A stretch of DNA of 61,367 bases, the filler included, from Fonticula-like sp. SCN 57-25 (Eukaryota): assembly GCA_001724245.1 (NCBI GenBank). It is 6 parts of 6 records of this genome, joined end to end, with 100 filler letters (N's around TTAATTAATTAA, not from the genome) between each part and the next. Parts side by side here need not be neighbours in the genome. Positions count along the whole stretch, not along the records: positions 1 to 10,902 come from MEDX01000246.1; 5 more parts are not named here. One strand, written 5' to 3'. A program made the position numbers and the translations under genes. Below are positions 1 through 19,980 of the stretch, in pieces; position 1 is the first letter of the stretch; every line of letters begins with the position of its first letter. Under the pieces are notes generated by a model, which searched no databases, was not told the DNA's origin, and saw nothing but the letters and a program-made list of their open reading frames with translations.

Positions 1-657
1 TTGTTGTTCGAGAATGTAAGACAATTCTGGAACGTCGCTGAACGGGTATTGTGGCAAGGGCTCGCTTCCGTGAGCGATTCCCACCGATGTTTCCAACGTC
101 AACTTGAGGCCCTCTTCTTCAACGTTCACCGTCAATTGTTCGTATTGGTTGACAATCCCTCTCTTTTCCGATGATGATGATGAAGGTGTGTCGGTAATGT
201 TGAGTTTTTCTTTTACTTTGTCGATCAATCCTCTTCCAAATCCCGTGGTGGATCTCTTCTGAGTGACATCGGAGCAAACGATTGCCACGTAGTGACAAGC
301 AATGTAGTCTCCTCGTTTGGACTCGTCGTTGTTAAACTCGAGTTCGAAGCACTTCAATACGGGCGCCTTTTGCTTCTCTTTTGGTACGTGAACGGTTCCG
401 TCGTCGAACAGTTGAGCGAGGAACGTATTGATGCTCTTGTCGACTTCTTTGACTGCAAATTTGACGGCATCCGACCAAGGTTTCTTCAGGGTGGATATTT
501 TGTAATCGGGGCTCGCATAGTCAAACTTGAAATCTACTACCACACCCTCGTCCAGAGAATAGAGCTTATTGATGCTCGTCAGATAACAATCTTCCTCGCC
601 CTTGACGAGGGATGCGACCAACACCGTGCAGAGCAAACACAGTATTACGCCTCTCAT
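1..657 (-). CDS. Secreted/surface hypothetical protein, runs off the window edge
   Basis: Absent from the ORF track. Hand translation from ATG 657 gives MRGVILCLLCTVLVASLVKG-EEDCYL..., open for 219 codons to base 1, with a signal-peptide-like N-terminus. Confidence 0.75.
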   Translation of the reverse strand, partial: MRGVILCLLCTVLVASLVKGEEDCYLTSINKLYSLDEGVVVDFKFDYASPDYKISTLKKPWSDAVKFAVKEVDKSINTFLAQLFDDGTVHVPKEKQKAPVLKCFELEFNNDESKRGDYIACHYVAIVCSDVTQKRSTTGFGRGLIDKVKEKLNITDTPSSSSSEKRGIVNQYEQLTVNVEEEGLKLTLETSVGIAHGSEPLPQYPFSDVPELSYILEQQ

Positions 658-713
658 TTTTACGATAGGAGTGCAATCTTACTAATCTAACAAACTTGGG
701 TCCGATGGTTTGT

Positions 714-1230
714 TTATTCTTCGAGTGTATAGACACGTTTCAAAATATAAACTAAAAAAATTAACACCAATAAACTCGCACCCACGAGTAAAAACCCGGC
801 TATTTTGGGCTTGACGTTCTTCCTCCTCTGATTCTTGAGGGGCACTGTGCTGGCAATAATGTTGTAGTACACGTTATCTCCTTCTTCTATTTCGTAAGCG
901 TACACTTCCGTCTTTGTAATGTCCTTGACTCGTTCTATAATATTTACAACAGCAATGGTGCTTATGGGGAGCACAGGAAAATGGAGGCCATCGTCGTACA
1001 AGCTAAAATCACCCGACATGTCGAAGCGCATACTGTCCGGAATGGCATCCTCGCCTATGAATNCGCATACTGTCCGGAATGGCATCCTCGCCTATGAATA
1101 GCACTAGTTTTTTTCGCAATAGATCATTTTTAATCTTCTCGAATAGCTCCTCGGGTGGTATCGAGCGGTAAAGCAAAGTGATGGTTGGTTTTTGCCCGTT
1201 TAAGGGATATATAGACAAGCCCTTTTTCAT
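714..1230 (-). CDS. Hypothetical ~159-aa protein with C-terminal TM helix, split by an assembly duplication
   Basis: ORFs 1009-1293 and 714-1085 join in frame once one 36-bp duplicate plus the N at 1063 is removed. Ends KIAGFLLVGASLLVLIFLVYILKR. Confidence 0.7.
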
Positions 1231-1311
1231 CTCTGACCCGCGATTTGTTCTAGCGGTCACAAAATTTCGTACAAAAGAGATAGAGTGAGACAAAAAAAAA
1301 TCTTTATTGCC

Positions 1312-4300
1312 CTATAGTTTGTCCTCCGTGAGAATCGTGGCCGACAAGAAGGGATAGTAATGATCGTTGTTTCTTCCCGTGGGATTGATGATGGCGCCTC
1401 TAACCCTGGACACGTTATGAGTGACAGTGTCGTCCAATCCTCCTCTTTGCAAGATTGTGCGAATCCAATGCAAGCCGAGTTGGTAGTCGTCGTCGTCGAA
1501 CAAGAAGCAAGGTTGGATGGGTTCGTTACCGAACGTATCCAACGTGAAAGTGGGGACGTGTCTGATAGACCACGAGGAGACACCATTGTTGACCACGGGG
1601 TAGGCGATCATGTTCTTCGCTTGGATCATAAAATGGTAGTGTTGCAACATGTTGAAAAGAGACACGTTGAACATTCTTTGCGTCACGGAGCTGCTCTTTC
1701 TTATGGTGGAGAATTTCCATGCTTGTCGCATCAATTTCCACAAGTGGAATCCCGGTACGATGGCTTCTTCCCTTTCTCTATTTTCCTTCTTGTATCCACC
1801 GAGGTAGGGCATATCCCACACGTTCTTTCTGTCCATCAAATCGAAGAGCACTTGATAGAACACTTGGTTAAACTTGAAAAAGTTGCAGGTGACACCCACG
1901 CAGTAGAGGGCGTCCAAGTAGAGCCAAAACATTTCGGTGTTTTCCATGCGAGTGTCATTGTCCGTGGCTTCTTTGCCTTCGTATATGACCTTCCAAAACT
2001 TGACGATGGACAAAGGGTACCGATCTGCGTCTTTTACGATTCCGAGGCCCATTGCCGCTTCCGTGCATGCGCGCGATAGTTCTTGACCGTTTTGTTCCGA
2101 AAAGAACTTTAGGGACGTGTCGATAAGGTACTGAACGTTGAATAATATCGTGGGAGGGATCTCCAGGATGTGGGACTTGCGCGTATTGTAGAGCAATCCA
2201 TCGTAGACCATGACAACCCTGATCGTGATGATGCGTTGCTCGTCGAGCGACATTTTACCCTCGACGTCCGGGTTCTGGAATTCGACCGCGTAGAGGAGCG
2301 AAATGCCGTGGGGATTTATCTTGAGGGTCTGTGCTCTCACTTCTCCTTCCCTGAATAGTGCCTTGTAGACTGGTATCGATTCTACGAGCGAATCGACGTT
2401 GTAAGACGATGAGGAGAAGACGTTTCCTACGACCCACAAGAGAGTGTTAAAGTCGAACAAACACTTGGCCCTGATGGTTTCCCAATTTCGTGAAATGTCG
2501 TTCAACGTATCTTCGGATCTTTGATGCGCAGGGTCGTGGTAATTTTGAGTAGTGTCTTCTTCGAACGTGAGCGCCAGACGCTCCAAGAACTCGGCGTGTT
2601 CACCATCCACCACCTTGGAACTCGGCGTTTTGAACGATGGAACTACGGACGATTCCACCAGCTGCATAAATTCCTTGTAGGTGGAGTAAAATTTACCGCC
2701 TTTGAGGAGCGATTCGCCTTCTTCGACCACTTCCATGGGATTTTCTCGCTGTTCTTTTGCCTCTTCTTTTTTACCTCTGAGACGGTTGATTATGCCGTTG
2801 AATAGACCCCAATTCGTAGTCTTGTTAGGGACACTTCGTTGTCTGGAGTTGTTCTCGAGGATAGAAACCATTTCCGAAATGGGTGTGTCGTCTTCGGATG
2901 CGTCCAGAACGTTTTTGAATTCTCCGTAAGTGCAGACGTTGAAAACGACGTCGAATGCAAAGGGACCGTCGTCCAAGTTGACCGATCTGGGATACTTTTT
3001 GGCACTTTGCTCAAAATCTGGTCCCGTCAACATGCGCATGACATTGACCGGCGTCTCTCGTTGATTTTCATTCATGGACACGAGCGCACTGAGCTCGTTG
3101 TGCGTCGTTTTTGGTACGGCGAGAAGTCGTTCAAAAGCCGTGTTGCCGATCGTTCTGTAAATATTGAAGAGCAAGTTGAGTTCCGTGAGCGTAAAGTAGG
3201 CGTAATAAACGTGTCCCGCACTCGTTGTACCAAAAAGTACGTGGTTTGGTCTGGCCTTTTTTCCGTACACCCGATTGCTGTACTGTACACCGAAATGGGC
3301 TGCGAGCTTGTCAGACCAATAAACGAGAGCACCTCCAAACGACGCAAAGTTGTTGGGAGGGCTCTTCGCTGTACTGTACCGCGCGAGTACGCTCTTGTTG
3401 GACGATTCGTCGATTATGTTATTGTCGAAACTAAACTCTTCTTGGGGGCTCTGTTGGAGTTCTTCTTCCTCTTCTCCGACGCGCTCGGGTTCGAGTTCTT
3501 TCTCTTCGTTTACGAGGTTAGTGTTCGACTCCATTTCCATAATTTGAGACAATGGCTGCGATTGAGATTCCTTGCTGTCGTAAACGCTGTCGCCGATGTA
3601 ATTCGTGACACCAAAACCTTGCGATTCGGCATCTTGAAGAGATTGATCTTCCACTACTGGGTTGACGACTGTGTTTACGGTATTTTTACCGTTGAGAATG
3701 TCTAGGATGCTCACACGCACTTCCACTGGTTCCTTTTCGGATTCTTCTGCTGGTTGTTCTTCTTCGTGGTCACTCGCGGGAACGTCTTCCATGGCAACGT
3801 CTTCTCGGCGAGGAGAGTTGACGCGAGTGTTGGGGAGAGTGTCGTCACCACCTAAAGGTTCTTCTTCTTGGACGCTGGGTGGTTGTTGTCGTTCTTCGGG
3901 TTCTTGTTGTTGTTGTTGTTGTGGCTGAGGAGCGTATATGTTTCTAATACTACCTCGTGTTACGTATGTGTCCTTGTATTTCGTGAGCATCGCCACTACA
4001 TTTGCTGTGTATTGTTCTACGTCACCCACGACGCGTGGTGCAGTCAATAGGTGGTACTGTTCCACGACCACGACTTCGTTATCTTCTCTAATGTGGTAAT
4101 TGTGCTCAAAATCTCTGGGGTACAAATTGAAACTGGCCGGTTGCTCTTGGTATGGGTTGACAAACGACTTTGCGTACCCAAAATCGAACAAATTTGCGTG
4201 TTGTGCATTCCTCTGCATTTCGGCCTTGGTAAACCTCTTTTCCACAAAGTTCCAGATGCTGAGGTTGCAATAGTTTGACAATATGTTGTTTCTTCTTTCG

Positions 4301-5358
4301 GTGGCAGTCCTGAGAACTTTAAGGTCCATTTCATTCGTTCCGAACAGTTTCTGGTTGCCTTTGCACATGAAATCGACGTAAACGCTCGGGTGCACGACGG
4401 GTGTAAAATCGACCTTGTAAATCTCTCCGAGTCCCATCTGAGAGAGACTGACGAACCACGCCATGCGAGCAAAGAACATGACATTGTTGACGTCGTTTTC
4501 GTTTGCACTGAGCTTTTCTGGAACGTTCAACAAGAGTACCGATCTGTGATACTCGTTTCCATTTCTACCGACGGGCGAGCTGAATTGCAAGTTGTCCATG
4601 AATACGTAGCACAATCCACGTTCCTTGTCGTCGAGCCTCTTCGTCGCGTAATGAAACAGGGATGAGTTTGTGTGGAATGCGTCTATCGTACTTTTCACGG
4701 TGACAGAGTCGAGTTTTTCGAAGAGCTTTTCCATCGTGTGGCGTGTCTCGGGTTCGGCAGCTCCGGCCTTTTTGACAAACAATTCGAGGAGTTTAATGTC
4801 GTGTCCAAAAAGCCTGCCCTTGTCGTCGTCGAGATAGAAAGCATCGTAGGGTTGATGTTGATCCCTGTAATTGACGAACCTCTTGATTCCTTCCAAAAAG
4901 CGAGTGAACTGCTGCTTTTCTTTCCGCACGTATTCGACCAACTTCTCTTCGAACAGACTGCCCCTAGTGAGAGTCGACGTGTAGTTGTACTCGTCGGTGC
5001 TTGCGTGAACGTCGTTCCAAAAGGACGATTGCTCCTTGATGGCCGTAATGTACGCTTCCAAGGGAAAGCCCAAGAAGATTAGCGACATGACTTCGAGCAC
5101 GTCTGCGTGTGCTCTAAACCACTCTTTGTCTTTGACTCCGTCGATAATGTCGACACCCCACACGTCTATGAGGTAGTGAAACTGGGCACCTCCGGAGACG
5201 ATGAACCAAGCGACCAAGTGGTGATCGTCAACGATGCCACTTCCAATGTCGTATAGCGTATTCAATATAGCAGCATTCCATGGTTTGAGACGCTTCGTAA
5301 TCTCGGGGTTGTCGCCTTGCGATGAGTGATCCCTCAAGATCAGAGGAATCCTGTCCAT
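1312..5358 (-). CDS. Large hypothetical protein (~1348 aa)
   Basis: Long ORF, first ATG at 5358 (MDRIPLIL). Two globular-looking halves around a Q/E/P-rich linker. No family recognised. Confidence 0.85.
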   Translation of the reverse strand: MDRIPLILRDHSSQGDNPEITKRLKPWNAAILNTLYDIGSGIVDDHHLVAWFIVSGGAQFHYLIDVWGVDIIDGVKDKEWFRAHADVLEVMSLIFLGFPLEAYITAIKEQSSFWNDVHASTDEYNYTSTLTRGSLFEEKLVEYVRKEKQQFTRFLEGIKRFVNYRDQHQPYDAFYLDDDKGRLFGHDIKLLELFVKKAGAAEPETRHTMEKLFEKLDSVTVKSTIDAFHTNSSLFHYATKRLDDKERGLCYVFMDNLQFSSPVGRNGNEYHRSVLLLNVPEKLSANENDVNNVMFFARMAWFVSLSQMGLGEIYKVDFTPVVHPSVYVDFMCKGNQKLFGTNEMDLKVLRTATERRNNILSNYCNLSIWNFVEKRFTKAEMQRNAQHANLFDFGYAKSFVNPYQEQPASFNLYPRDFEHNYHIREDNEVVVVEQYHLLTAPRVVGDVEQYTANVVAMLTKYKDTYVTRGSIRNIYAPQPQQQQQQEPEERQQPPSVQEEEPLGGDDTLPNTRVNSPRREDVAMEDVPASDHEEEQPAEESEKEPVEVRVSILDILNGKNTVNTVVNPVVEDQSLQDAESQGFGVTNYIGDSVYDSKESQSQPLSQIMEMESNTNLVNEEKELEPERVGEEEEELQQSPQEEFSFDNNIIDESSNKSVLARYSTAKSPPNNFASFGGALVYWSDKLAAHFGVQYSNRVYGKKARPNHVLFGTTSAGHVYYAYFTLTELNLLFNIYRTIGNTAFERLLAVPKTTHNELSALVSMNENQRETPVNVMRMLTGPDFEQSAKKYPRSVNLDDGPFAFDVVFNVCTYGEFKNVLDASEDDTPISEMVSILENNSRQRSVPNKTTNWGLFNGIINRLRGKKEEAKEQRENPMEVVEEGESLLKGGKFYSTYKEFMQLVESSVVPSFKTPSSKVVDGEHAEFLERLALTFEEDTTQNYHDPAHQRSEDTLNDISRNWETIRAKCLFDFNTLLWVVGNVFSSSSYNVDSLVESIPVYKALFREGEVRAQTLKINPHGISLLYAVEFQNPDVEGKMSLDEQRIITIRVVMVYDGLLYNTRKSHILEIPPTILFNVQYLIDTSLKFFSEQNGQELSRACTEAAMGLGIVKDADRYPLSIVKFWKVIYEGKEATDNDTRMENTEMFWLYLDALYCVGVTCNFFKFNQVFYQVLFDLMDRKNVWDMPYLGGYKKENREREEAIVPGFHLWKLMRQAWKFSTIRKSSSVTQRMFNVSLFNMLQHYHFMIQAKNMIAYPVVNNGVSSWSIRHVPTFTLDTFGNEPIQPCFLFDDDDYQLGLHWIRTILQRGGLDDTVTHNVSRVRGAIINPTGRNNDHYYPFLSATILTEDKL

Positions 5359-5522
5359 CTTTTTTTTCCTAAGCGCCGTTACGAATACAAACAAGTCGTT
5401 CGATTTTAATCGATGTGTTTCGTTCCTAGTCAAACTTTGTGCGTGTATCAAAATTTTATTTATTTAATTATCTCGGGTCGCGAGATTTTTGTAATAAAAA
5501 CATGTGCAAACGAGCGCTTCTT

Positions 5523-7133
5523 TTACTTCTTCTTCTTCTTGGGTCTTTCGTCTTCGGATTGGTCAATCTCCGAGGCCTTTCTCTTTTGAGGCGATTTTTG
5601 TTTGTTGTTGTTGTTGTTGTTGCTGGCCGTGCTCGGTTTGTTGGGAGCCTTCTTTTCCTTTTTGACTTCCTTCAGAGGGGCACTCTTCTTTTTGGGTGCT
5701 TGCTTCTTCTCTTCTTTGACCTCGGGATCCTTTTTGACCTTCTTGAGCTTGATGTTGGTGTTGTTACCACCGCTCGATGCATTCTCGTGGTCTTCCTCGC
5801 CAGGACCAATGATCATAGTGTGGTCTTGGTCGGTCTCTTCTTCGAGGTTGTTCAAGCGCACGGTGGGATCGCTCTGGGTGTTTTCACTTCGTTCGAGGTA
5901 GTGGAGCTTCTCGTTATCGTCCTTGACCTTACGCCAGTAGGTGGGCTCTTCGCGTTTGTCTATCTCTTCTTCTTTCATAAGCTCGGGTGACTTGTACTTT
6001 TCAGCAAAGCGCTTCAGGCCCAACTTGTTGAGTTCGTCCCGTCTCTTGTTAATGGCATCGAGGTCGAGCTGTCTTCGCTTGGTTTTCTTCTTGATGATGA
6101 AACCTTCCTTTTGCACGGCAAAATTAAAGGCAACACCCCTAGTCTTGGCAAATTCGGCAGCATAAACCGCAGAGCGCAAGTGAGGCACGGCAAGACCCTG
6201 AGCACCGTGCGCTTGGCGCATCTTGTCGGCGCGAGCAAACATGTCGGTCAAGTACTCTTCGCAGGCAGCGTGGAGAGCGGCAAACGCATCACCTGAGATC
6301 TTGATGGGCTCGTCGACGTCGGTGACGTCTCCTTTGTCGTCAAAGGTCGGCTTGAGGCTCTCGTAGAGATTCGGGCAGCGTTCGGGGTAATGAGCGATAA
6401 CGTTGGTGGTCACTTCTTTGATCATGCGCGAAATGTTCGACTTGGGAAACGCGCCTTCAAAGTAGCCTTCGTCCATTTCCTCGGGTGTTGCACCTGCTAG
6501 AGGCTCGATGCAACTGTTCACGTGCTTTGCCATGTCCTTGTCCTTGTTGATGTAGTACAATTTGTTCTCTTTGACCCAATCGTCGGACATGGGAGGAACG
6601 TCAAAATGTTTCAGCTCGTCGACGTGTTCTTTGACGGGCTTCTTCACGGCACCAGCCTTGGGTTTAGCCACCTTGGCAGGAGCACTCTTCTTGGGCGATT
6701 TGGTTCCAGGTTCTTCTTTGATCTTAACGGTCTTCTTGGGCTTGGCTTTGGGCTTTGGTTGCTCTTTCTTTTCTTCTTGCTCTTCTTCTTCGGCATCTTC
6801 GCTTTCTTCTTTCTTTTCTTCCTCTTCGTTGTCTTCTTCGTCGCCGTCGTCCGCTTTGTTGTCGCCGGCCTCTTGTTCGGGCTTCTCGGAGGACTCTTCG
6901 GCGTCTTCTTCGCCATTTTCTTCTTCGTTGTCTGCCTCTTCTTCCTTCTTTGCCACCTTGGTTTTGGGCACAACCTCTTCGGGAGAGTTAGAAGAAGACT
7001 CGTCTTGCTCGGAATGACCGTTGGCACCATTTTCGGATATTCCATTAGCGTGACCATTGGTCTTTTTTTCTTCTTCGACCAGCTTGGGTGTATCGGTCTT
7101 AAACTTACTCATGAGGGTTCTCAATGCAGACAT
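5523..7133 (-). CDS. 536-aa protein with divergent H3-like histone fold and acidic/Lys-rich tails
   Basis: FPKSNISRMIKEV...IKISGDAFAALHAACEEYLTDMF aligns with H3 IRKLPFQRLVREI...[23 protein letters not shown]. Confidence 0.8.
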   Translation of the reverse strand: MSALRTLMSKFKTDTPKLVEEEKKTNGHANGISENGANGHSEQDESSSNSPEEVVPKTKVAKKEEEADNEEENGEEDAEESSEKPEQEAGDNKADDGDEEDNEEEEKKEESEDAEEEEQEEKKEQPKPKAKPKKTVKIKEEPGTKSPKKSAPAKVAKPKAGAVKKPVKEHVDELKHFDVPPMSDDWVKENKLYYINKDKDMAKHVNSCIEPLAGATPEEMDEGYFEGAFPKSNISRMIKEVTTNVIAHYPERCPNLYESLKPTFDDKGDVTDVDEPIKISGDAFAALHAACEEYLTDMFARADKMRQAHGAQGLAVPHLRSAVYAAEFAKTRGVAFNFAVQKEGFIIKKKTKRRQLDLDAINKRRDELNKLGLKRFAEKYKSPELMKEEEIDKREEPTYWRKVKDDNEKLHYLERSENTQSDPTVRLNNLEEETDQDHTMIIGPGEEDHENASSGGNNTNIKLKKVKKDPEVKEEKKQAPKKKSAPLKEVKKEKKAPNKPSTASNNNNNNKQKSPQKRKASEIDQSEDERPKKKKK

Positions 7134-7328
7134 GGTTGGGGATTTTTGTTGGTGCCGCGTGTGGTCTCTTGTTGGTCGGATTTAAATAAAATGACTCGCT
7201 GCCAAAAATTTAACACAAAACAAAATTCGCACCGAAATTTTGGCATTGTCAGAACTACCGAAAATGTTCGATTCACGGTAACGCGACAAAAAAATAACAT
7301 TGTTCATTTTTCCCATTCGCCCTCCATC

Positions 7329-7631
7329 ATGTCAACACACACCATTCATTTCATCGTCAACGCATTGCACGTCGACGGCGGGGAGATGGAAAAAATGGTC
7401 TTCGAGGGTAAATTGGAAAAGCTCGCCGGCATCACCCCCGAGAATATTGCGTTTACGAAGGGGGCGTTCGATTATGCCCTTCGAAGACACATCATCAACA
7501 ACTCGAAATGCGTCGTGCAGGACGTTTACGTTGCCGTCGTGTCCGAGGAACTGGTGTCAAATTTCGAAGAAATTGTACAAACGTTTGAAGAAAAGTTGGG
7601 GTCGATCAAAATTGAACCCAAACACGATTAA
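7329..7631 (+). CDS. Hypothetical protein (100 aa)
   Basis: ATG 7329 (MSTHTIHFIV) follows an AT-rich divergent intergenic. The upstream part of the track ORF is antisense shadow. Confidence 0.7.
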   Translation: MSTHTIHFIVNALHVDGGEMEKMVFEGKLEKLAGITPENIAFTKGAFDYALRRHIINNSKCVVQDVYVAVVSEELVSNFEEIVQTFEEKLGSIKIEPKHD

Positions 7632-7661
7632 ATAAAAATACAGCGTTTATTTTTCATTCGA

Positions 7662-8225
7662 TCAATCCTTTGTAGACTTTCCGCGTGGGTTCTGAGGGGC
7701 AGAGTGCTGGACTTTTGTATTTAGCACGTTCAGGGAGAGTTTTGATTTTGCAATCTCTCCACCAAAGAACATTTCCTCGTTCGTTCGCGTGACGACCAGT
7801 TCCGAGTTTCCATTTTCCAGCACTTGAGAAAAGAGGGCGCTCGTGCTATCGTTCGAATCTATGAATTGTTGCTCTCCCAAGACCAACATGGAATTGACAT
7901 GGCGTGTGTCCATCGCCCTAGAATTTTCCAACTCTTTTAAATGCTCTTTTAAGCTCTGCGTCAGACCTTTGACCGCATCGGCGCAATTTTGCAAGGCAAC
8001 CGCTTGGGATGTGATCAATTTTTCGATATTCTGATCTACCGAATATTTTTCCCAAAAATTAATAACGTTGTCGCAGGCCTTCGCAATTTGTTTGTTTATG
8101 CCTTCTATATCGTGGTTAATTTTATTCACCCTGAGGGAGTGTTGATAATCGGTTGCTTCGTTGAGCATGGACCATTGATTCCAGACATCTTGAGGGTCTT
8201 GGTATTCTTCGTTTGTGGCGCTCAT
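7662..8225 (-). CDS. Hypothetical coiled-coil protein (187 aa)
   Basis: ATG 8225 (MSATNEEYQD); heptad-like helical composition. Confidence 0.75.
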   Translation of the reverse strand: MSATNEEYQDPQDVWNQWSMLNEATDYQHSLRVNKINHDIEGINKQIAKACDNVINFWEKYSVDQNIEKLITSQAVALQNCADAVKGLTQSLKEHLKELENSRAMDTRHVNSMLVLGEQQFIDSNDSTSALFSQVLENGNSELVVTRTNEEMFFGGEIAKSKLSLNVLNTKVQHSAPQNPRGKSTKD

Positions 8226-8431
8226 GTTGCAGGTTTGTTGTTGAATGGTGTTGTTGGGAAAATTGAAGTTCAAAAAAGACAAAAAACCGCTGACGTGGTA
8301 GGTTTTTTTTTTCGGGTTCAGAAAATCGTAAAATGCGCCACGTGAAGGAACGTCGCAAAATAATTTTTTTTTGTTATGCACGTCCCACGTCATTCGTCAA
8401 CATATTACCAAATAAAGACATACGCGGAACA

Positions 8432-9520
8432 ATGGCCCACGAATCGACACAATTTACTAAAGAAGAAAAAACTTCGAGCCCAGCTGCCCCGATAAAGTTA
8501 TCGAAGAACCCACCAAAATGGCTCAATAGCGTCATGAAATTCGGTTCGACCACCGATTTTTTCGTACTGGCAGTACTGATCGTGTACCATATAAAACAGC
8601 ACCTCTTACCCGAAGATGAAGCGCTCTGGCCCATCAGGCAAGCGTACGCTTTGCATAGCGCGCTCGTCATAATCAACGGTCTGGCGAGCACATGGAAAGG
8701 ATGGAGCGTCGACAATAACGCCTTTTATGCATTGCACCACGCTATAACACACGTTTTCTTTTACTACACCACCGCTGCGCCTTCCAACACTTCTTCAAAA
8801 TACCTGGCTGCCATGTTCATCTATCTATTCATGAGAATATTCAAGAGGCTAAAGGACGAAGGCTTATACACCGACAAAGAATGGGTCGTCTTCTACGTCT
8901 TGTACACTTACACCCAGACGATTACGAGCTTGTTTTTTACGCTTTGGATTGGACACGAGCACAAGCCCATCGACATTATCGGCTACATTGCACTCGTCGA
9001 CTCTGCGTACACTTCCAGAAGAGTAGATATTAGCAAGGAGTTTTTTGGAGGTCTGCCAATCTTCGTGACAGACAATGCACTTCAACGACCAGAAATACGC
9101 AAACTGCTTTCTATACTGGACGTGGTCATAGTGTGGGCAGTCACTGCTATTCCCCTATATCAAAACGCTCAAGGTGGAAACGGTTTGTCAGCTCTGACCA
9201 ACATTGATAGCTACAGATCGCTATTAGCCTTTGGATTTGTCGACTTGATCGTCAAACGCATACCAGCCTTCAAAAAGTTCAAACGCCCTCACGTTTACGA
9301 CCACATGAAGAGCGGCTCCTTCCCATCAGCGCATGCGGCTGTTGCGGTCGTGAGTTGTCAAACTATGGATCCTTTGACCAAAGTGGTCATGGTCGCTGCC
9401 GTGGGATTCAGCCGTGTATCATCGAGGTCTCATACCCCAGAAGACGTGTGCGCAGGATACATTTTTGGTGACATTTTTAACGTCATATGGATCATTGCCA
9501 TGACGCTAATAGGAAAATAA
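8432..9520 (+). CDS. Membrane protein: N-terminal multi-TM domain plus C-terminal PAP2 phosphatase
   Basis: PAP2 motifs K...RP (spacing non-canonical), SFPSAH and SRVSSRSHTPED (SRx5Hx3D). N-terminal TM helices contain LHHAIT. Confidence 0.85.
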   Translation: MAHESTQFTKEEKTSSPAAPIKLSKNPPKWLNSVMKFGSTTDFFVLAVLIVYHIKQHLLPEDEALWPIRQAYALHSALVIINGLASTWKGWSVDNNAFYALHHAITHVFFYYTTAAPSNTSSKYLAAMFIYLFMRIFKRLKDEGLYTDKEWVVFYVLYTYTQTITSLFFTLWIGHEHKPIDIIGYIALVDSAYTSRRVDISKEFFGGLPIFVTDNALQRPEIRKLLSILDVVIVWAVTAIPLYQNAQGGNGLSALTNIDSYRSLLAFGFVDLIVKRIPAFKKFKRPHVYDHMKSGSFPSAHAAVAVVSCQTMDPLTKVVMVAAVGFSRVSSRSHTPEDVCAGYIFGDIFNVIWIIAMTLIGK

Positions 9521-9595
9521 AAAATAATATTCAACTTTTTTATTGTGTCGAATTTTAAGCGATTGGTAAAACACAAAAAACTAAACACCTTCGCT

Positions 9596-9757
9596 ATGGA
9601 CATTTCACTAATCATGTTGATGGCGTTTGTCGCCTATTTCACGTCGCTGTCTTTTATTTACTACATTGCGAATAAGGACACTCACCACCAACCAAAAAGA
9701 GGTAAAAATTTTTATCACCAAATGGCCTATTTATTTACTTTCTCTTTGGCAGATTGA
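9596..9757 (+). CDS. Possible small single-TM protein (53 aa)
   Basis: MDISLIMLMAFVAYFTSLSFIYYIA hydrophobic stretch; overlaps the end of the convergent gene. Confidence 0.4.
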   Translation: MDISLIMLMAFVAYFTSLSFIYYIANKDTHHQPKRGKNFYHQMAYLFTFSLAD

Positions 9758-10902
9758 TGGCCTGGTTGGGATTCTGTTGCACGCCCTCTTTGGGCTTGAC
9801 AAAAAAGTACTTGTTCAGCTTCTTTTTTGCCGTTTCGTAGACGTCTGCGTCGACCCAAAATCTTCTGACGTTTGCACCGCTGTCCATCCAAACGATGCAA
9901 CACTTTACGGAGACGCCAGTGTCGAACATTTTTAGGAACATGTGCGTCGTGGCGATCAGTTGCATTTTTGCTTGATTCAACGGGGAGTTGGTAAGTCCCA
10001 CTTTCTTTTGCATGTTCTTCTCACCGACCTCGAAACAGCCATCGTAGCCAGTCTTGACTTCCACGAGAACGATGCGCTTGAACACCTTGTCGTAGACGAT
10101 AATATCCACCGCGGTGACCTTTTTGCTGCGAAGGTCGTACACGGGTGTTTCTCCGAGCAAAGGGACCCATTGCCATTCCTTGTCCATCATATTGAACAAG
10201 TTTTTGACGGAATCGTCCAGGGAGCCCTTGGTGCTCAAATAAACGCCCAATCCAAACGTAACCACGTCGTCTATCTGTTGGTGCAATCGTTTACCACGTT
10301 CCAATCCCATCAGCTTGGATTTGAATTGTCCGTTCTTCATAAACGTCTTGTCGCTCTTGTTCTTCTTGAATCTATCGCCAACAATGTCGGTATTCTTTTG
10401 ATTGTTTTTGTAAGAATGAATGGTCGCAAAGTCCTCCAATCTCGCCAAGTGTGACAGCTTTTTCTTCTTTTTGCCGCCTCTCTTCTCGACTTTGCCACCC
10501 ACGACTCCCAGGGGATCTGAGACCACCTTTTTGGTCCTCTTGAGCTTTGAAAAGTCAAAGTCGGGCCAAAAGACTTCTGCCAGTCCTGCCGTGATACCGC
10601 GTAAAGTGACAACGTTGTTGCGGTCATCACGGTAGATAAAACCCTTTCCCGTGGTAGAAATGAACTTCCTCCTGGGGTCCGTGACGACCTTGGTGATGAG
10701 CGCTTTTGCAGAAGCATCGTTTATGGAGTCTATTTTCACCTTTAACGAGGCAGGTATTTGAGCCTCGGTTTCGTCCATTCTCGTCACGTACTCTCTAGGT
10801 TGGTATCTCCTTTGCATCTTCTCGTACAAAAACAACTCTTCGTCCGTTGGAATAGGCACCATGCCGTCTTCGTACGTGTCTTGTTGGGGGTAATCCTCGT
10901 AG
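9735..10902 (-). CDS. PD-(D/E)xK (RecB/Cas4/MGME1-like) nuclease, possibly 5'-truncated
   Basis: RGKRLHQQI, LGETPVYD, AVDIIV, VLVEVKTG, MQL motifs. The frame stays open upstream of 10862 to the contig end. Confidence 0.8.
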
Positions 10903-11002
10903 NNNNNNNNNNNNNNNNNNNNNNNNNNNNNNNNNNNNNNNNNNNNTTAATTAATTAANNNNNNNNNNNNNNNNNNNNNNNNNNNNNNNNNNNNNNNNNN
11001 NN
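10903..11002. other. Artificial contig linker
   Basis: N44-TTAATTAATTAA-N44 (stops in all frames). Confidence 0.98.
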
Positions 11003-12892
11003 CGCCGCTCTCGACGAGCGCCTTTACTACATTCACCTCGCCAAAGCAGGCGGCGCCGTGCAGCGGCGTCCACCCGTCGTCGTCCGTCTGGGAGAGCGTC
11101 AGTGACACAATAAAGATACGCATTTCGGTACGTACGACGTTGATCTTGGCGCCGTTGCCGAGAAGGTACGTGACGACCGCGCCGTGGCCATTGCACGAGC
11201 TGCTGTGCAGAGGCGTCAGGCCCTCCTCATTGGGCTGGTTAACGTCGGCGCCAGACGCAATGCACTCTTTCACAAGATCAAGGTCGCCATCAAGTGCGCC
11301 ATCTGCAGGGAAAAATAATCAAAAGGCAAAAAAGAATCAAAAGCGCCCAGTTAGCAAAAAGGCGTCCAAGAAAAGATTTGTCGCACCAAGCATGAGAACG
11401 CGCTGGGCAAACTTGAGCCTGCGCAAGTTCTTGTTTGGCAGCCCGCTCGGCTTCAGGATCGACTTGACTGCCTTGCGGCTCACCGGGGCAGCGGGCACCA
11501 CCGCCGGCGAGGGCGGGTTGGACGACGACACGACAGTCGTCGCCACGACCGGCGTCGACGGGGCCGACACGGGCAGCGGCGTGGCGGGCCCGGCAAGTTC
11601 CGCGGCGCTCCCGCTCTGCGGCACAACCGCCGCCTCGGTGACCGAGCTCACGACGGCCGACTCTTCGCGCAGCTGCTCGCGCTGGAACAAGCGCACAGTG
11701 AGCCAAAGAACAACCAATTGGTGAACGAGGCGAGGCGTACCAGCCGCGACGACTTGCCGATGACGACGACGGCGTCTTCATCAGAGGGGTCCACCGCGTC
11801 CACGGGCGCCTTGCCGGCCTATTTCAAACGTCAGACAAAGCCATACAAAAAACAAAATAAAAGCACCTTTAACTCTTCCAGTTCCCGCTCGAGGCGGTCA
11901 ATGATGCGCGCCTGGCGCGAATTCTCCTTTTCGAGGCTCGCAACCCTCGTCTTGAGCTCAATGTTCTCCTTGTCCTTGGCATCGCGCAGCCGCTGCATTG
12001 CCTTTGTATCGATCGGCTGCTTGGACTCGAGCTGCGCCAGCAAGGCGTTCTTCTCCGCCAGCTCTTTCGTCGCCGCCGCCAGGTTCTGCGACGTCTCTAT
12101 TAAATTCCGCTCGACCAGCTGCAGGGACTCTTCGTAGAGGTGCATCCGGTCGCGGTTCGTCTGCCGCACGAGGCGGCTGCTGTCCACCTCCAGCCGCAGC
12201 TTGGACACTTCATTCTGGCGCTCCAGAAGCGCCTCTCGCAGCTGACGAATCGTTGTGTCGGGGTCTGCAGCACAAAAGGTCAGCGGCATGGCGGGCCAGC
12301 GCGGAGCGTACTCTCGAGGGCTTCAAAGTCAGAGTAGCTGCGCGACAGCGCCGTCTTCTTCTTCATGTTCTTCAAACTCGGCCTATCTACGTTGGTCGCG
12401 CCAATGTCACCCGAACTGGACATTTTCTAGCGGCACTCTGTCAGCCAGCCCGTTTCCATTGGCCGTCAACTACCGTACCCGAATGAGCTGATCCTGCTGC
12501 TCGAGCTCGTTGAGCTCCTCTTGAAGCACCGTCTGCATGGCGCGCATCTTGTCCTGAAAGTTCAGGGCCTCTTCCGGCGTCATACCCTGCATCGCCTCTT
12601 CCACCAAGGAGGCGAGGCGGCGCGGATCGGGGCCATCGTGGTCGTCGGGGTAGTCCAGCTGCGGTGCCACGGGGGCGGCGTTGAGCTTTTGAAGAAGCTC
12701 TGGAGGATGGGGGTGCGCGGGAGGCGCGCGCGGCGCGGTCGTAGAGGTAGGTGTAGTCGGCTTGACCGGCGTGGGGGTTGGAGTCGCGGCAGGCGCCGGG
12801 GACAAGAACGCCCTCTGGGATCGGGATCGCGCGTTAGAAAGGGGGGGAGGAGGCAAGGCAAAGACGAACCGAGAGAAGATTGCCTTTGCCAA
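11003..12892 (-). CDS. Coiled-coil plus ankyrin-repeat PP1-regulator-like protein (ASPP/MYPT-like); spliced, 3'-truncated, start uncertain
   Basis: KSILK and RRLKF precede DGALDGDLDLV...PNEEGLTPLH...DDDGWTPLHGAAC...LVESG. Confidence 0.7.
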
Positions 12893-13098
12893 ACATCTCG
12901 CTTACTACGCGGACAATTCCGCAGCGATACGGTCGTTGGCCTCAATGGAGAGTGTAGATGTGCAGTCGCTCCAGGGTCAAGCGGGGCCCAAAACTTTGAT
13001 TGGCAAGAGCCAAGCAGGCAGGAACGCTTGCAGCACACCAAACAAGACCCGGAAACTGCAAACTGCAAACTGATCGTGAGGGGTGCTGACCGCCAAAG

Positions 13099-14049
13099 AT
13101 GCCGGCCAAGCTCGACTTGATCCCGCCGTATCGCTATGCGATGGTGGAGGAGGGCATGTTTCGTGGCGCCTATCCGTCGAGCAAAAACTTTCGCTTTCTT
13201 TTGAGGTTACAATTGCAGACGGTGGTGTCGCTCGTACCGCAGGCGCCAACGGCCGAGCTCACCGAGTTTTGCGCGGCCAACAACATCAACCTCGTCCACA
13301 TGCGGGTGGACGTGTATAAGGAAAAGATCCCGATCTCGCCTAGCGGAGTCGCTCACGTATTAAGTGTACGCTTTTCTGCCTTGCGCGCCGTGTAGACTTA
13401 GCCGCGCTTGGCAGTTAATCCTTGACAAGACGAGGCATCCGCTCCTCCTGCACTGCATGAACGGCGCCGAAGTGACGGGCATCGTCATCATGTGCCTCCG
13501 CAAAATCCAAAATTACAGCCCCAACTTTGCCATTGTCGAAATTCAGCGGTGCGGCTTTTCTTTGGCGGTGCTTTCCACCCTGCTAAACGCTTGCAATAGG
13601 CATCTTCGCGAGGGCGTTTTCACGCACGAAATGCTAGAGTTTTACGAGCGCTTCAACAACGAGGTCACGATCCCGGCCGTCATCCCCAGCTGGCTCTGGG
13701 AGGGGCAGCGGCGAGGGCAGACAAGCAAGGCGGCGGTGCGACTTTTGTCTCTAGATCGCGCGAACGCTGACCTTTGGCGGCCAGACTACCGGGCAGGACG
13801 GCGACGCCGCTGCGAGCACCGCGACGGAAAGCGGGGCGCAGCACTGGCAAGAGTACAAGCACAGCCTGCTGGGCCAGCCGAGCGGCGCGTCGCTACCGGC
13901 GGCGCTTCGGCAAGGCTCTTTTGTGGACGAAACAGAGCTCTCTCTTAGTGCGGCATTCTTTTCCCCATGCTTTGTTTGCTCACTCTGTTCCTCTCGCAGC
14001 CCTGCGCGCGCTCTCACTCGAAGTCGGAAACAAGCAGCAAGACAAGTAG
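13099..14049 (+). CDS. OCA6: OCA6-like PFA-DSP/Siw14-family phosphatase-like protein (spliced)
   Basis: LIPPYRYAMVEEGMFRGAYP and LLLHCMNGAEVTG...CLRKIQ; the P-loop Arg is missing. Confidence 0.7.
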
Positions 14050-14266
14050 CGGCGCCACAGGCAGTGCGCACGCGGCAGCGACCAGGAAAGAGGCCATTTA
14101 CTGTATTATAAATTGTATTGTAAATACTTACATCGAACCTAATGCGGGAACTGTACAACATAAAAATCGCACGACTGGCTCTAAGCGATGCGCACAAACA
14201 TTCGAGGAAAAGGTAACAAACAAGCAAATATAAAGACGCGCAGCGTCAATGGGAATCATCGCTGGC

Positions 14267-14984
14267 TTACGAGTAGTGCACGCGCTCGCCGCGCACGGTG
14301 TAGTAGGTCATTTTCCCCGAGGCGCGGGGCTGGCCGGTCTGCTCGTTGAACATGCGGCACTCGCTGTACGGCGGCGTGTACAAGTGTAGCGAAAGGGCGC
14401 CCTTGGTGTGGCTCTTGTTCTCCACCCTGTGGAGGCCCAACGAGTCGTTAATGTAGGCGACCTGGTCGCGCTCGTAGTCGGTGACCTTGGTCTGGACGAG
14501 CGGGCCTTCGGCCTGGCCCTCGCTGTTGATCGGGTTGCGGTACTGCGACTCGGTCAGGGTACCGTCGAGCAGCTTCATCAGGCAGTGCGACCCCGAGTGA
14601 TCGTGGATCCCGCTACAGGCCAACCATATTAGCAAAAGAAATCAAAGCAATGGGAAAACGAACCTGGCGTGGCCTTCGCCCCAGGCGAGCACGAGCAAGT
14701 TAAACTTGCCATTGCCGTCGTCCACAAAGTTACGCGTGTACTTGTGGGAATCAAAGTTGGCATACTTTTGCCAGTCCTCGTCGTTGGACTGCACGGGGGG
14801 CAAAGGTGAGCAACTAAAAAACCCCAATAAGCCGCGTTCGCACCTTGTACGACTCCATGAGGTGCTTCACGCGGGCAAAGCGGCGCTCGTCGAGATCGGT
14901 CAAGCCATCCTCGCCGAGCTCGGCATTGAGGGCGGCAACGAGGCCTTCCAGGGAAGATGGGGCAGGGGGAAGGTCAAACTCCAT
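14267..14984 (-). CDS. CDO1: Cysteine dioxygenase (3 exons)
   Basis: [39 protein letters not shown]. Confidence 0.93.
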
Positions 14985-15745
14985 GGGTGGTTTGGGCGAC
15001 AGTGAGGAAAGTCGCAAGTGAGAGAGGGAAGCTACGAGTCGAGTCGCAGAGAGTTCAGCCGCCGGAAGGAGACCGAAACTCGCGAATAAGTAGTGGCGGG
15101 GCGCTCTCCGGGCAAGCGGACCGTCGGCGAATGTCTCAAACCGGATGGCCGTCGGTTTCAGTAGGTTACGGTCCGCTAGGTCGGTTTGGTCTGGTTCGGT
15201 CTGTCTCGGTCGGTCTCCGGCTGGTCATGGGTACGTCACGTGCGCCTCCGTGGGAATCGCGCGTGATCGGGATCACCGTCGGCAGCCCCTCTCGGAAGGG
15301 TGCATGACCAACATTACGCTATATTCCGTCATACACATGCATGTGACATACAGCGCGGTATATGGATAAAGTGTGTTGATAATGTGCAGCGGTGTTGAGC
15401 ACTGCTTGAAATGGGTGGCATATGTGACCTCCAGCATGGATAAGGCGGGGTAAAAAGCATGGCTTGTGGCAATGTTGTATGGTACTGTGCATTGGTTACA
15501 TGAATATATGCCATTCATGCCATGCATAATTATCAATATATTACTGTACTTTGAATCGCATACATGCCATGCCATGCATGTCATAGTACTGCTCCGTGGA
15601 TAGCGTGCCTTTCATGTATGTTGGCAATGTACTTTGAAAATAATCATTCTTCAATAAAAACATGGAACTCAAGCGATACAAACGAATAAATTTCTATGCA
15701 TACACGATGCCCGACGCGCCATCGCCGGCATTCTCTATCTTGTAC

Positions 15746-17328
15746 TTATACAATACGGCACCACTCTGGCACCGACTCGCCCACCTGCGCGGCGATCCCC
15801 TTGCCCCTGCCGTACTCTTTCGCCTGCAGCTCGGCGGCGATGCGCGCGTCGGCGTGGATATGCGGGTGAATCCCCGCGTCGCTCACCAGCTCGTAGAAGA
15901 AAATGTACCCGTTCGTGGCCATCTCAGAGTGCATCATGGTGGTCACCTCCTTGAGGCGGCGCTCGGCGTGCACCAAAGGGCCGTTTGCGTTGTCATCAAA
16001 GCGCAGCCATTGGCCGCCGTGGTTAGCCCACGTGGTGTAGTGGCCTCGGTCGACGCTGTTGCCTTCGTGGCAGACGACCGAGACGAGCCGAAGCGTGTAC
16101 ATGAGGTTGGTCGGGGGAGACGTGAGGTACACGAACGGCGTAAAGTCAATCTTCAGCACGGTTGGTTAGAAGAAGATGCGAGCAGTAAAACATGACACAA
16201 TAAGGGAAAACATGACAAATCACAACACAAATACAGCACATCCACAACGAGACACCACAAAAAAATCTCAACCCAACGCACCTCGGGAGGGACGATTACC
16301 CTCGCCGCGACGCGCTCCGGCCCCGACGGCCCGTAGCAGTACCGCTTCAGTATGATGGGAAGCACCAAACGCGTCGGCAACGTGTCCTATCGTAAAGTAT
16401 GAGCAAACATGACGCAAACCGCCCTGCTCGGTCGCACCGACGACGGGCCCGCCTCGCTGGCGAGCCTGATAAAGGGCAGCATCGACATCATGCGCCACGC
16501 GTCGACCTCCTTGACGCCCTCGGCAGTGCCGACGCGGCGGTGCAGGCCGTGCACAGGATTTGAAAAGTGCTCCTGGAGCAGCTGCTCGAGCGTGTACTGC
16601 GAGTGCGCGCCGCTGTTCTCGGGCATGCTCACCTGCAGCACGCGGTCCGCCACGCGCTGCTCGTCGCCGCCCTCAGCAACGCCGCCGTGAAAAAACATTT
16701 GTTTGAGGGTGAAGCTCGGCGCGCGAAGCGTCTCCATGAGAAAGATGAAAAGCTCAAAGGCGTCGTGCTGCTCGCGAAGCTCGCCAAGGCGGCAAAAGCC
16801 GGCAGCAAAGATCGCGTCGCGAAGCTCTTCGCCGACAGCGCGGGGGACGCGCAGGCCAGTGCGCAAAAGGCTCACGCAAAAGGAAAGTATCACCTGCAGG
16901 CGGCGCGCATTGGCTGGGGACGGAACGGGCGACAACAAAAGCACGTCAAACGCGTCAATCGTGGCAAACATGGCAAACACCAAAGAGTCAATGTAGCAAC
17001 TACAAAGCACACGGTCAGTATTCAGGTGCTGCTCCTCGCGCACGCACCTGTTGCCATAGTTGGGGATCCCTTGGTACGTCGCGGACTCGACGAGCGGGGT
17101 GACCGTCAGCGCCTGATCGGCGGGAACGCCGTCTACCAGCCGCCGAACCAGAGTAGCAAGATCGCCGTTCACATTCTCAACAAGCGTCTCTGCGGCGGGC
17201 TCCTCGTACCCAAGCGCCATGAGGACGTCCATACACTCTCTCCACATGCTGCGCGTAGGCGGCGGCATTGTTGTCCGCGGGAACCCACTCCGGTCCCAGT
17301 CTTCGTCCTCGTCCGACCAGGGCATCAT
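15746..17328 (-). CDS. CYLD-like ubiquitin-specific protease with N-terminal UBA-like motif (spliced)
   Basis: Cys box GIPNYGN/SCYIDSLVFAMF, QHDAFE, His box VVCHEGNSVDRGHY...WLRFDD. Confidence 0.85.
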
Positions 17329-17544: not shown

Positions 17545-18820
<1,276 letters not shown>

Positions 18821-19851: not shown

Positions 19852-19980
19852 TCTTGGATTTGCGGGTTCCGGAGAGGTGGTCACAAACACAATGGCTACG
19901 CTACGGCGCCGGAAAGCCAACGCGGCCCTCGTACGCAGCACACGTCCTTGCTCTTGCGTTCTAACATTTGCCAATAGAAT

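Follow-up and report, generated by a model that had tools for sequence, protein, structure and literature searches.

The histones of medusaviruses and clandestinovirus are among the closest described systems to the protein considered here (P0001). They are singlets with extended tails which are recognisable as H2A, H2B, H3 or H4, with 25-43% identity to host histones in the cases described, and occur as full sets. P0001 differs from them in that it fits no histone class, has no partner nearby and is only putatively viral. Among cellular histones, a longer loop 1 often marks CENP-A (PMC11633173). P0001 resembles CENP-A in this longer loop 1, in its long divergent N-terminal region and in having Drosophila Cid as best PDB match (E 0.24, not significant), but it carries 206 residues after helix 3, its match to the Pfam Histone family lies below the cut-off, and the H3-type residues of loop 2 and helix 3 are absent under colinear alignment.

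Another likeness is with the NF-Y/archaeal-type histone fold (PF00808), which provides the best profile match. The helix-1 spacing and the loop-1/helix-2 motif fit this type, and the ESM Atlas model of P0001 can be superposed with entire archaeal/bacterial histones of 71 aa (TM 0.82-0.84). The differences are a score below the cut-off, a 32-aa insertion in loop 1, a total length of 536 aa including charged tails of about 430 aa, and an acidic fold with neither the basic/Thr pair of loop 2 nor the Arg-Asp clamp. CENP-T and the Pol-epsilon/CHRAC-type subunits also carry a histone-fold dimerisation module within a long protein with disordered or acidic tails, as P0001 would if its fold dimerises; P0001 has no significant sequence match to them, and we take their domain order to be different. 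Finally, the linker histone H1 resembles P0001 in the K/P/A-rich composition of aa 126-170 and of the C-terminal tail, and in nothing beyond composition. The description of these segments as H1-like, made in an initial sequence-only reading of the locus, is one of composition alone; no winged-helix or linker-histone globular domain was matched in Pfam at E up to 1 over the whole protein.

The gene and the one related lineage found

The window, that is, the whole stretch of DNA analysed (61,367 nucleotides, filler included, from assembly GCA_001724245.1 of Fonticula-like sp. SCN 57-25), consists of six joined pieces, and the gene for P0001 lies in the first of them. The coordinates of all features are collected in Table 1. 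A public gene call places the start at Met8, which gives a product of 529 aa (P0002). Read from the N-terminus, an acidic tract and a K/P/A-rich block precede the conserved core (210 aa), and behind it come another acidic block and the lysine-rich tail. The K/P/A-rich block (45 aa) contains 16 K/R, 8 P and 6 A, with PAKVAKPKAGAVKKP inside it, while K/R account for 28 of the 81 residues of the tail, which ends in PKKKKK; AHGAQGLAVPHL is placed at aa 308-319. All the motifs and tails claimed in the sequence-only reading (the D/E tract, the K/P/A segment, AHGAQGLAVPHL and the PKKKKK end) are therefore present. The bipartite-NLS-like end, aa 517-536, may direct nuclear import.

Table 1. Features of the P0001 locus, with positions along the window
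Feature	Position	Strand	Basis
Piece 1, 42-50% GC, ~8 intronless genes, bounded by N44-TTAATTAATTAA-N44 spacer	1..10902	.	Composition, gene reading
Whole ORF of P0001, 536 aa + stop, ATG start	5523..7133	-	Read directly from sequence
N-terminal acidic tract, aa 43-125, D/E 41/83, net charge -31	6759..7007	-	Composition
K/P/A-rich basic block, aa 126-170, net +13	6624..6758	-	Composition
Domain shared with homologous lineage P0004, aa 184-396	5946..6584	-	BLASTP
Putative helix 1, aa 229-248, N-terminal FPKSNISRMIK	6390..6449	-	AlphaFold helix aa 233-248
Loop-1 insertion, aa 249-280, short helix + strand predicted	6294..6389	-	AlphaFold, P0004 alignment
Putative long central helix 2, aa 281-313	6195..6293	-	AlphaFold; sub-cut-off Pfam matches
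Putative loop 2 + helix 3, aa 314-330 (LAVPHLRSAV...)	6144..6194	-	AlphaFold + direct reading
Conserved basic post-fold extension, aa 331-396, FNF..GF.I..TKRR.LDL	5946..6143	-	Model + alignment
Second acidic block, aa 401-455, net -9	5769..5933	-	Composition
C-terminal lysine-rich tail, aa 456-536, net +17	5526..5768	-	Composition
KRKASE...PKKKKK, aa 517-536, bipartite-NLS-like	5526..5585	-	Direct reading; similar P0004 ending
P0017, small ORF, 100 aa, divergent to P0001	7329..7631	+	Weak likeness to P0001

The evidence for selection comes from strain differences and from a single homologue. When the window was compared with a 42,601-base contig of sequencing run X6, nine substitutions were found within the ORF, namely eight synonymous third-position changes and the conservative replacement M386L; four of the nine recur in run X11. 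Searched exhaustively with phmmer, 1.84 billion representatives yielded one related lineage, P0004 (459 aa, E 2.7e-30), which is carried by contigs of 23-26 kb. Both proteins have the same block order, and their overall identity is about 39-40%. Over aa 184-396 of P0001 it reaches 38% in 217 columns (BLASTP, E 4e-40), and in the post-fold extension, where a helix is predicted from about aa 352, it is 39%. The best conserved segment is the loop-1 insert, which aligns free of gaps with 16 of 32 residues identical (50%). The C-terminus of P0004 likewise reads KRKASE ... KKKAKTK. Since the strain differences are mostly synonymous and the homologue keeps the block order, the gene is more than a product of chance: it is real and conserved.

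Five of the seven phmmer matches (P0005-P0009, 1074-1630 aa, with 4-8 short matched stretches each) were left out as repeat noise because they consist of TPR/CHAT-type repeats. Moreover, no relatives were found in IMG/VR (four scans), in JGI metagenome contigs or in GTDB genome contigs, and a word-index search with the alignment of the fold as query gave 48 candidates, none of them at E up to 10. As regards expression, there is no RNA run among the sequencing runs listed for the gene.

Resemblance of the core domain to histone folds

The profile evidence for a histone fold lies close to, and below, the family thresholds. When the domain alone was searched, CBFD_NFYB_HMF (PF00808) gave 20.3 bits, where 21.4 are required (E 7e-4, over profile positions 20-65 of 65). 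Pfam Histone (PF00125) gave 18.2 bits (cut-off 26.4), falling to 11.3 bits with the whole protein. Positions 69-100 of the 122 of the Histone profile map to the helix 2 region, as does the CBFD_NFYB_HMF match. Two unrelated families match the same residues, PTS_EIIA_2 with 19.9 bits and LigA_Halo with E 0.004. No match to a histone family was obtained with P0004 alone, nor any match with helix 1 alone as query, and PHROGs and NCBIfam returned noise only. In sequence and profile searches of the PDB the best E values were 0.11-0.3, none significant, with a BTB protein, a MaoC dehydratase and an SDR ranking level with Cid or higher. The spacing of FPKSNISRMIK, which we take to be the helix-1 signature of histone folds, is kept in both lineages. 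The helix-1 pattern and the loop-1/helix-2 pattern, both drawn post hoc from the consensus, have a single occurrence apiece among the 122,730 residues of the six-frame translation of the window, in both cases at P0001.

Two AlphaFold models of the core were made (256 and 127 aa), both of low confidence; that of the 127-aa domain (pLDDT 58.4, pTM 0.52) has a first helix of 16 residues (aa 233-248), then the insert, a second helix of 33 residues (aa 281-313) and a third of 14. In this low-confidence model, 32 residues separate the first two helices. In the ESM Atlas, histone-fold families were found in seven of the eight rows shown by the feature search (top score 0.82, to be taken as a lead only) and in nine of the ten rows shown by the structure search, although in one of these they make up only 14% of the members; the scores fall below that tool's own bars. 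Two clusters of 71-aa archaeal/bacterial histones were aligned over all 71 residues (row-normalised TM 0.82-0.84, query span 225-328), the alignment skipping about 33 query residues. The neighbours span CENP-S/X/T, TAF (TAF13/TAF11), DNA polymerase epsilon subunit D, archaeal and H4 families. With the AlphaFold models as queries, no significant match and no histone was found by Foldseek against the PDB, by VIA-align wide (best Z 4.7) or in BFVD, results which are uninformative because the models are of low confidence. A homodimer prediction for aa 219-353 scored 0.02, which gives no verdict and is evidence neither way.

Taken together, these results make it probable that aa ~229-330 adopt a histone fold of a very divergent kind, which carries a large insertion in loop 1 and is flanked by acidic and lysine-rich tails, as had been proposed at the outset. 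The loop had originally been counted as 35 residues, and the present estimates come close (32 from AlphaFold, about 33 extra from the ESM Atlas), although they derive from low-confidence models. The more specific proposal, that the fold matches helices 1 and 2 of H3, holds only in part: the Histone profile score is below its cut-off, the phmmer alignment to H3t has an i-Evalue of 290, and Cid is not significant. An H3 identity is not supported, because the best profile is the generic NF-Y/archaeal one and the ESM neighbours are spread across many families. Likewise, the reported loss of H113, R116 and D123, which in H3 belong to the four-helix bundle and the clamp (end of helix 2, loop 2, helix 3), holds only if the H3t alignment is extended without gaps, and this alignment is itself not significant.

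Direct reading shows that loop 2 lacks a basic/Thr pair and the start of helix 3 lacks Asp in both lineages; the Arg-Asp clamp is absent from the fold of P0001, and aa 229-330 have a net charge of -3. With this net charge and the lack of the usual DNA-contact residues, the suggested role in genome packaging is not supported. P0001 contains one putative fold only, and no doublet, triplet or full histone complement is present in the window.

Genomic context and competing interpretations

In composition, piece 1 is foreign to the remaining pieces, all five of them eukaryotic. Its tetranucleotide correlation with pieces 2-6 is 0.12-0.20, compared with 0.94-0.96 among these, and its GC3 is 0.52-0.64 versus 0.68-0.88. 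Its genes are almost all orphans, none of the eight scanned products reaching a Pfam cut-off. The neighbour at 9735-10862 found PD-(D/E)XK clusters in 26 of 30 feature matches (score 0.96), the three such clusters shown being 82-100% viral; it had no match in the PDB or in phage records and a weak one to SduA_C (E 0.003). For a neighbouring protein of 1348 aa, no relative was found among the candidates scored. The label "viral-type" given in the sequence-only reading is not supported: piece 1 is foreign, orphan-rich and carries a virus-like nuclease, but there is no viral hallmark gene in its 10.9 kb and no relative was found in IMG/VR. Neither an H4-like partner nor any other histone-fold partner gene was found in piece 1.

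The sole paralogue-like match in the window is the weak and partial one of P0017, whose aa 29-89 resemble aa 209-267 of P0001 (BLASTP E 2e-4, for a single pair; hhalign probability 1.1%). As a histone-fold partner it is a doubtful candidate in view of this probability and of its length, too short for helices 2 and 3. AATAAA-like signals follow several stop codons. An AT-rich hairpin between convergent genes (7626-7668, z -1.8) was set aside. A AAATTTTG motif upstream of three genes of piece 1 was discarded, as its three matches in the window are equalled in 29 of 100 shuffles. Rfam gave no match in the window.

The explanation that we prefer, with a probability of about one half, is that P0001 is a real, maintained orphan of about 530 aa whose core has a divergent histone fold, and which is chromatin-associated, targeted to the nucleus and encoded by an unsampled virus or mobile element. 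The core would consist of helix 1 (aa ~229-248), a structured loop-1 insert of about 32 residues, helix 2 (~281-313) and helix 3 (~316-330), followed by a basic helix. Given a net acidic fold with no basic/Thr pair in loop 2 and no Arg-Asp clamp, we infer a dimerisation module, self-paired or paired with another histone-fold protein, rather than a nucleosomal histone that wraps DNA. Contact with DNA and import into the nucleus may fall to the lysine-rich blocks; the acidic tracts may bind basic partners (e.g. histones) or mask the basic blocks. The source DNA would be that of a large DNA virus, or another mobile element, of a microbial eukaryote living in bioreactor or wastewater communities. 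The dimerisation, the nuclear targeting, the role in chromatin and the viral origin are all putative.

Three other explanations have to be weighed against this one. The core may hold no histone fold at all and be a new helical domain in a charged, mostly disordered protein of nuclear or nucleolar type, the histone-like matches being compositional noise. All histone scores are indeed below their cut-offs and tied by unrelated families, the homologue has no histone match, and P0017, which covers only the pre-fold and helix-1 part, would, if the likeness is real, suggest that this part is a unit of its own. We regard this as rather unlikely, given that Pfam profiles, language-model features and ESMFold neighbours converge on the same 100 residues and on one superfamily, that the predicted helices have lengths and order suited to the fold, and that the helix-1 spacing is conserved in both lineages. 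Very unlikely, in turn, is a genuine nucleosomal histone of H3 type, encoded by a virus for packaging its genome and combining in one chain the functions of chaperone and linker. It would suit the foreign, orphan-rich context and the weak colinear alignment of loop 1 and helix 2 to H3t and Cid, but it is at odds with the negative charge of the fold, the loop-2 and helix-3 residues missing from both lineages, the Histone score, and a piece that carries neither an H4-like or other histone gene nor a viral hallmark gene.

The histone fold is also kept by the third alternative, a cellular protein (CENP-T-, CENP-A-, TAF- or Pol-epsilon-subunit-like) with long disordered tails, from an unsampled compact eukaryote, piece 1 being a contig of another organism. 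The CENP-S/T/X, TAF13/TAF11 and polymerase epsilon subunit D clusters among the ESM neighbours, Cid as top PDB sequence match, the longer loop 1 often found in CENP-A (see above), the AATAAA-like signals and the conserved NLS-like end, fitting for a nuclear protein, all agree with it. CENP-A ends just past helix 3, and the fold of CENP-T is C-terminal. The roughly 200 residues that follow the fold of P0001 are unlike these layouts; together with the lack of Pfam matches for all eight products in 10.9 kb, the 1348-aa neighbour with no relative among the candidates scored and the adjoining virus-type nuclease, they make a cellular origin improbable. A bolder version of the preferred explanation, in which unsampled large DNA viruses of wastewater protists possess a new family of single-chain chromatin proteins, is likewise improbable. 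In these proteins a histone fold with a conserved, structured loop-1 module of 32 residues would lie between acidic tails like those of chaperones and basic tails like those of linker histones, and the protein would enter the host nucleus and pair there with histone-fold proteins of the host, remodelling or hijacking chromatin.

At present the orphan gene is well supported, its fold probable but unproven and its function putative, which is not yet a discovery. If the fold is confirmed, this family of two lineages would widen the known range of histone-fold architectures with a singlet of about 530 aa, whose acidic fold carries a conserved 32-aa module in loop 1 and whose tails are acidic and basic in alternation. 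If the element turns out to be viral, the viral chromatin repertoire would gain a histone-fold protein of a non-nucleosomal type, with a bearing on the debate over how viruses have acquired and reshaped histones.

The gene of P0001 and its single homologous lineage

P0001, the 536-residue protein that the sequence-only reading had described as a giant H3-like histone of viral type, is the product of a real gene. The claimed ORF is present, running from ATG to stop, with an alternative public gene call beginning at Met8 (529 aa). The sequence observations previously made on the protein are sound: all the quoted strings were found, as were an acidic tract (aa 43-125, D/E 41/83, net charge -31), a K/P/A-rich segment (aa 126-170; 16 K/R, 8 P and 6 A per 45 residues, net +13) and a basic tail (aa 456-536, K/R 28/81, net +17) with C-terminal KRKASEIDQSEDERPKKKKK. 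Long plus-strand ORFs overlapping the gene were rejected as shadows of low-complexity codons, no supporting evidence having been found for them.

For strain comparison, contigs from four sequencing runs were aligned to 5300-7700. One contig of 42,601 bases, from run X6, covers the whole region (record 13, contig positions 31307-33705); thus, the element carrying P0001 measures at least 42.6 kb, far more than piece 1 of the window, in which the gene lies. This contig differs by 12 other letters and 4 gaps in total, positions being listed for 11 substitutions and one insertion, while three further gaps have no position and a repeat at 5592-5632, within the part encoding the C-terminal tail of P0001, was skipped. 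Among the differences listed, nine substitutions fall within the ORF, eight of them synonymous at third positions and the other being M386L; four of the nine are also present in a second run, X11. The P0001 stretch, whole or mostly, is present in runs of six studies with a bioreactor or wastewater metagenome label, although three of the runs may be the source itself, and no RNA run is among those listed as carrying it.

The word-index search with P0001 returned only the self-match. Exhaustive phmmer comparison of aa 165-420 with 1.84 billion representatives gave seven matches at E up to 0.001, including P0001 itself and a single true homologue, P0004 (459 aa, E 2.7e-30, 39% identity), whose five-member cluster lies on contigs no longer than 25.9 kb. 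The other five (1074-1630 aa, matched over 4-8 short stretches each) were discarded as noise, their sequences being TPR/CHAT-type repeats. By BLASTP, aa 184-396 of P0001 are 38% identical to P0004 (E 4e-40). In both proteins the blocks follow one another as acidic, K/P/A-rich, core, acidic and lysine-rich, and the C-terminus reads KRKASE, then acidic residues, then a run of lysines. The best conserved segment is the loop-1 insert, an ordered element under selection rather than a slack loop.

Features of the window, of piece 1 and of P0001 (positions in the window, or in P0001 where marked aa)
Feature	Position	Strand	Remark
Spacers	10903-11002, 20831-20930, 31971-32070, 41834-41933, 51611-51710		regular, separating pieces of ~10 kb
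Protein with signal-peptide-like N-terminus	1-657	-	by reading
C-terminally membrane-anchored protein	714-1293	-	gene apparently broken by assembly join at N 1063
1348-aa orphan	1312-5358	-	no relative in any search
P0001	5523-7133	-	536-aa ORF
P0017, 100 aa	7329-7631	+	divergent from P0001 gene, 195-bp spacer; hidden within longer spurious ORF
Orphan	7662-8225 or 8393	-	below Pfam cut-offs
Multi-pass membrane protein	8432-9520	+	by reading; weak PAP2-superfamily match at C-terminal end, E 0.0025, below cut-off
PD-(D/E)XK nuclease-like protein, 375 aa	9735-10862	-	language-model features
Pre-fold			P0001/P0004 identity 12/45
Helix 1	aa 229-248		identity 8/20
Loop-1 insert	aa 249-280		identity 16/32, gap-free
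Helix 2	aa 281-313		identity 14/33
Loop 2 and helix 3	aa 314-330		identity 6/17
Post-fold extension	aa 331-396		identity 26/66
Second acidic block	aa 401-455		net charge -9

The fold of the P0001 core

The core of P0001 is probably a histone fold (probability about 0.7), under every formal threshold. Among Pfam families, the whole protein matched CBFD_NFYB_HMF (E 0.013) and Histone (E 0.41). With the domain alone, the first rose to 20.3 bits, short of its cut-off of 21.4 (E 7e-4, over profile positions 20-65 of 65), and the second to 18.2 bits, for a cut-off of 26.4. Histone-fold families (CBFD_NFYB_HMF, TAF13, CENP-S, CENP-T_C and Histone) appear in 7 of the 8 matches listed by the feature search of the ESM Atlas, which includes P0001, and in 9 of the 10 listed by its structure search, one of which has the family in 14% of its members only; these scores lie under the Atlas's own bars, and both searches count as one source. 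Among the Atlas structures, two 71-aa archaeal/bacterial histone clusters can be aligned over their full length (71/71 residues) with P0001 225-328 (row-normalised TM 0.82 and 0.84), which implies about 33 inserted residues. Furthermore, the AlphaFold secondary structure of aa 219-345 has helices at 233-248, 281-313 and 316-329, and an insert with a short helix and a strand. The long loop-1 insertion claimed previously is probable on these extra residues and on the helix-insert-helix order, both taken from models of low confidence.

The helix-1 start (FPKSNISRMIK in P0001, IPNSHMGRLIK in P0004) shows a Pro/hydrophobic/Arg/hydrophobic-hydrophobic/Lys spacing, as is typical for helix 1 of histone folds, and KIS.DA...L....E.YL is the common signature of loop 1 and helix 2. 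Each pattern occurs once in the 122,730 six-frame residues of the window, at P0001 in both cases, which is weak support since the patterns were composed after viewing its sequence.

Against this reading, every profile score for histone families is below its cut-off, and the composition of P0001 yields chance matches at that score level, as the unrelated Pfam family PTS_EIIA_2 reaches 19.9 bits over the residues that match the histone families and unrelated NCBIfam families are matched at E 0.004-0.06. Pfam matched nothing with P0004 alone, its core alone or helix 1 alone. Sequence searches of the PDB with P0001 gave no significant match, the best for the fold alone being Drosophila Cid (E 0.24), and PDB profile searches rank first a BTB protein, an SDR and a MaoC dehydratase. 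Moreover, the two AlphaFold models of the core have mean pLDDT values of 41.7 and 58.4, and searches with them by Foldseek against the PDB, by VIA-align wide (best Z 4.7) and in BFVD produced neither a histone nor any significant match.

If a histone fold, that of P0001 is not specifically H3. The H3-like assignment drew no support from what could be tested: among profiles, the generic NF-Y/archaeal model matches best, the ESM neighbours span many histone-fold families, and the H3t alignment has an i-Evalue of 290. In DNA-wrapping histones, the loop-2 basic/Thr pair and the Arg-Asp clamp provide the usual DNA contacts and loop-2 clamp, and they are often missing in dimerisation modules of the TAF or CENP-X type. 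Loop 2 of P0001 (GAQGLAV) and of P0004 (SSVIGLN) lacks the basic/Thr pair, and the helix-3 start (PHLR and VHLR, respectively) lacks the Asp of the clamp. Loop 1 retains one basic residue and Ser/Thr (IKIS and IKIT). The net charge of aa 229-330 is -3. P0001 contains one fold, not a doublet, with 206 residues C-terminal of helix 3.

Origin of piece 1 and its other genes

The window consists of six joined pieces (1-10902, 11003-20830, 20931-31970, 32071-41833, 41934-51610 and 51711-61367), separated by spacers of 44 N, TTAATTAATTAA and 44 N, so that neighbourhood across a spacer is meaningless. Piece 1 has 42-50% GC against 55-65% in pieces 2-6; its GC3 is 0.52-0.64 (0.68-0.88 in the others), and its tetranucleotide correlation with the other five is 0.12-0.20, compared with 0.94-0.96 among these. 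By its divergent profile and GC3, piece 1 either belongs to a different genome than the other pieces or is DNA foreign to them. Pieces 2-6 encode ordinary eukaryotic proteins, including a myosin head with MyTH4-FERM, Hsp70, mitofilin, a MutL-type domain and a splicing regulator. At 35092-41001 (minus strand), three consecutive long ORFs (myosin head, MyTH4 with SH3, and MyTH4-RA-FERM-PTB, in this order) resemble exons of one MyTH4-FERM myosin of the high-GC eukaryote of these pieces, suggesting few, short introns.

Piece 1 carries about eight intronless genes on both strands, and none of its eight products reached a Pfam cut-off. The favoured source, with some reserve, is a microbial eukaryote's virus or other mobile element. 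The 375-aa nuclease-like protein has a language-model feature score of 0.96, with PD-(D/E)XK clusters, 82-100% viral in the three listed, in 26 of 30 matches; it also has a D...E.K-type motif (DIIVYD ... VEVK) and a weak Pfam SduA_C match (E 0.003), and gave no match in PDB or phage records. Neither the viral claim nor the proposed role in genome packaging drew support from what could be tested; piece 1 has no capsid, packaging or polymerase gene, and four IMG/VR scans gave no relative. Alternatively, piece 1 may come from an unsampled compact eukaryote.

The N at 1063 is flanked on both sides by the identical coding string FIGEDAIPDSM in two frames (ORFs 1009-1293 and 714-1085, minus strand), and seems to mark a place within a single gene where the assembly failed to merge two ends. 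The X6 strain carries an extra T (at 5359) just upstream of the ATG at 5358, so the 1379-aa ORF from TTG 5451 most likely starts at this ATG, which makes the protein 1348 aa long. The string AAATTTTG occurs three times in the window, always in piece 1 (1260-1267 and 5449-5456, minus; 7235-7242, plus), each copy lying in the orientation of the gene and some 30-90 nt before a likely start codon; three copies are not a significant number, being reached in 29 of 100 shuffles. Finally, P0017 aa 29-89 share 30% identity with P0001 aa 209-267 (BLASTP E 2e-4 for the single pair, tblastn E 0.044 in the window), hhalign gives a probability of 1.1%, and the protein stops before any helix 2 or helix 3. 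As a lead only, it is a possible partner of P0001.

Comparison with known histones

For medusavirus and clandestinovirus histones, N-tails that are extended and acidic, C-tails that are lysine-rich and run to ~90 residues, and a lengthened loop 1 are already on record (PMC9145170). CENP-A, too, is often marked by a longer loop 1 (PMC11633173). None of the types set out in one section of PMC13681535 has the architecture of P0001. Keyword searches of the open-access literature gave no account of a ~530-aa singlet whose fold is acidic and whose loop 1 carries a 32-aa insert, which, given their scope, is not proof of absence.

In the likeliest mechanism, the core would use the histone-fold handshake to form homodimers, or heterodimers with a different histone-fold protein, and the conserved loop-1 module and basic post-fold helix may lend it a specific surface. 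Entry into the nucleus and contact with nucleic acid would come from the bipartite-NLS-like end together with the lysine-rich blocks, while the acidic tracts could hold basic proteins such as histones, or mask the basic blocks of P0001 itself. If the fold is true, P0001 would be best placed as a variant within the histone-fold kind.
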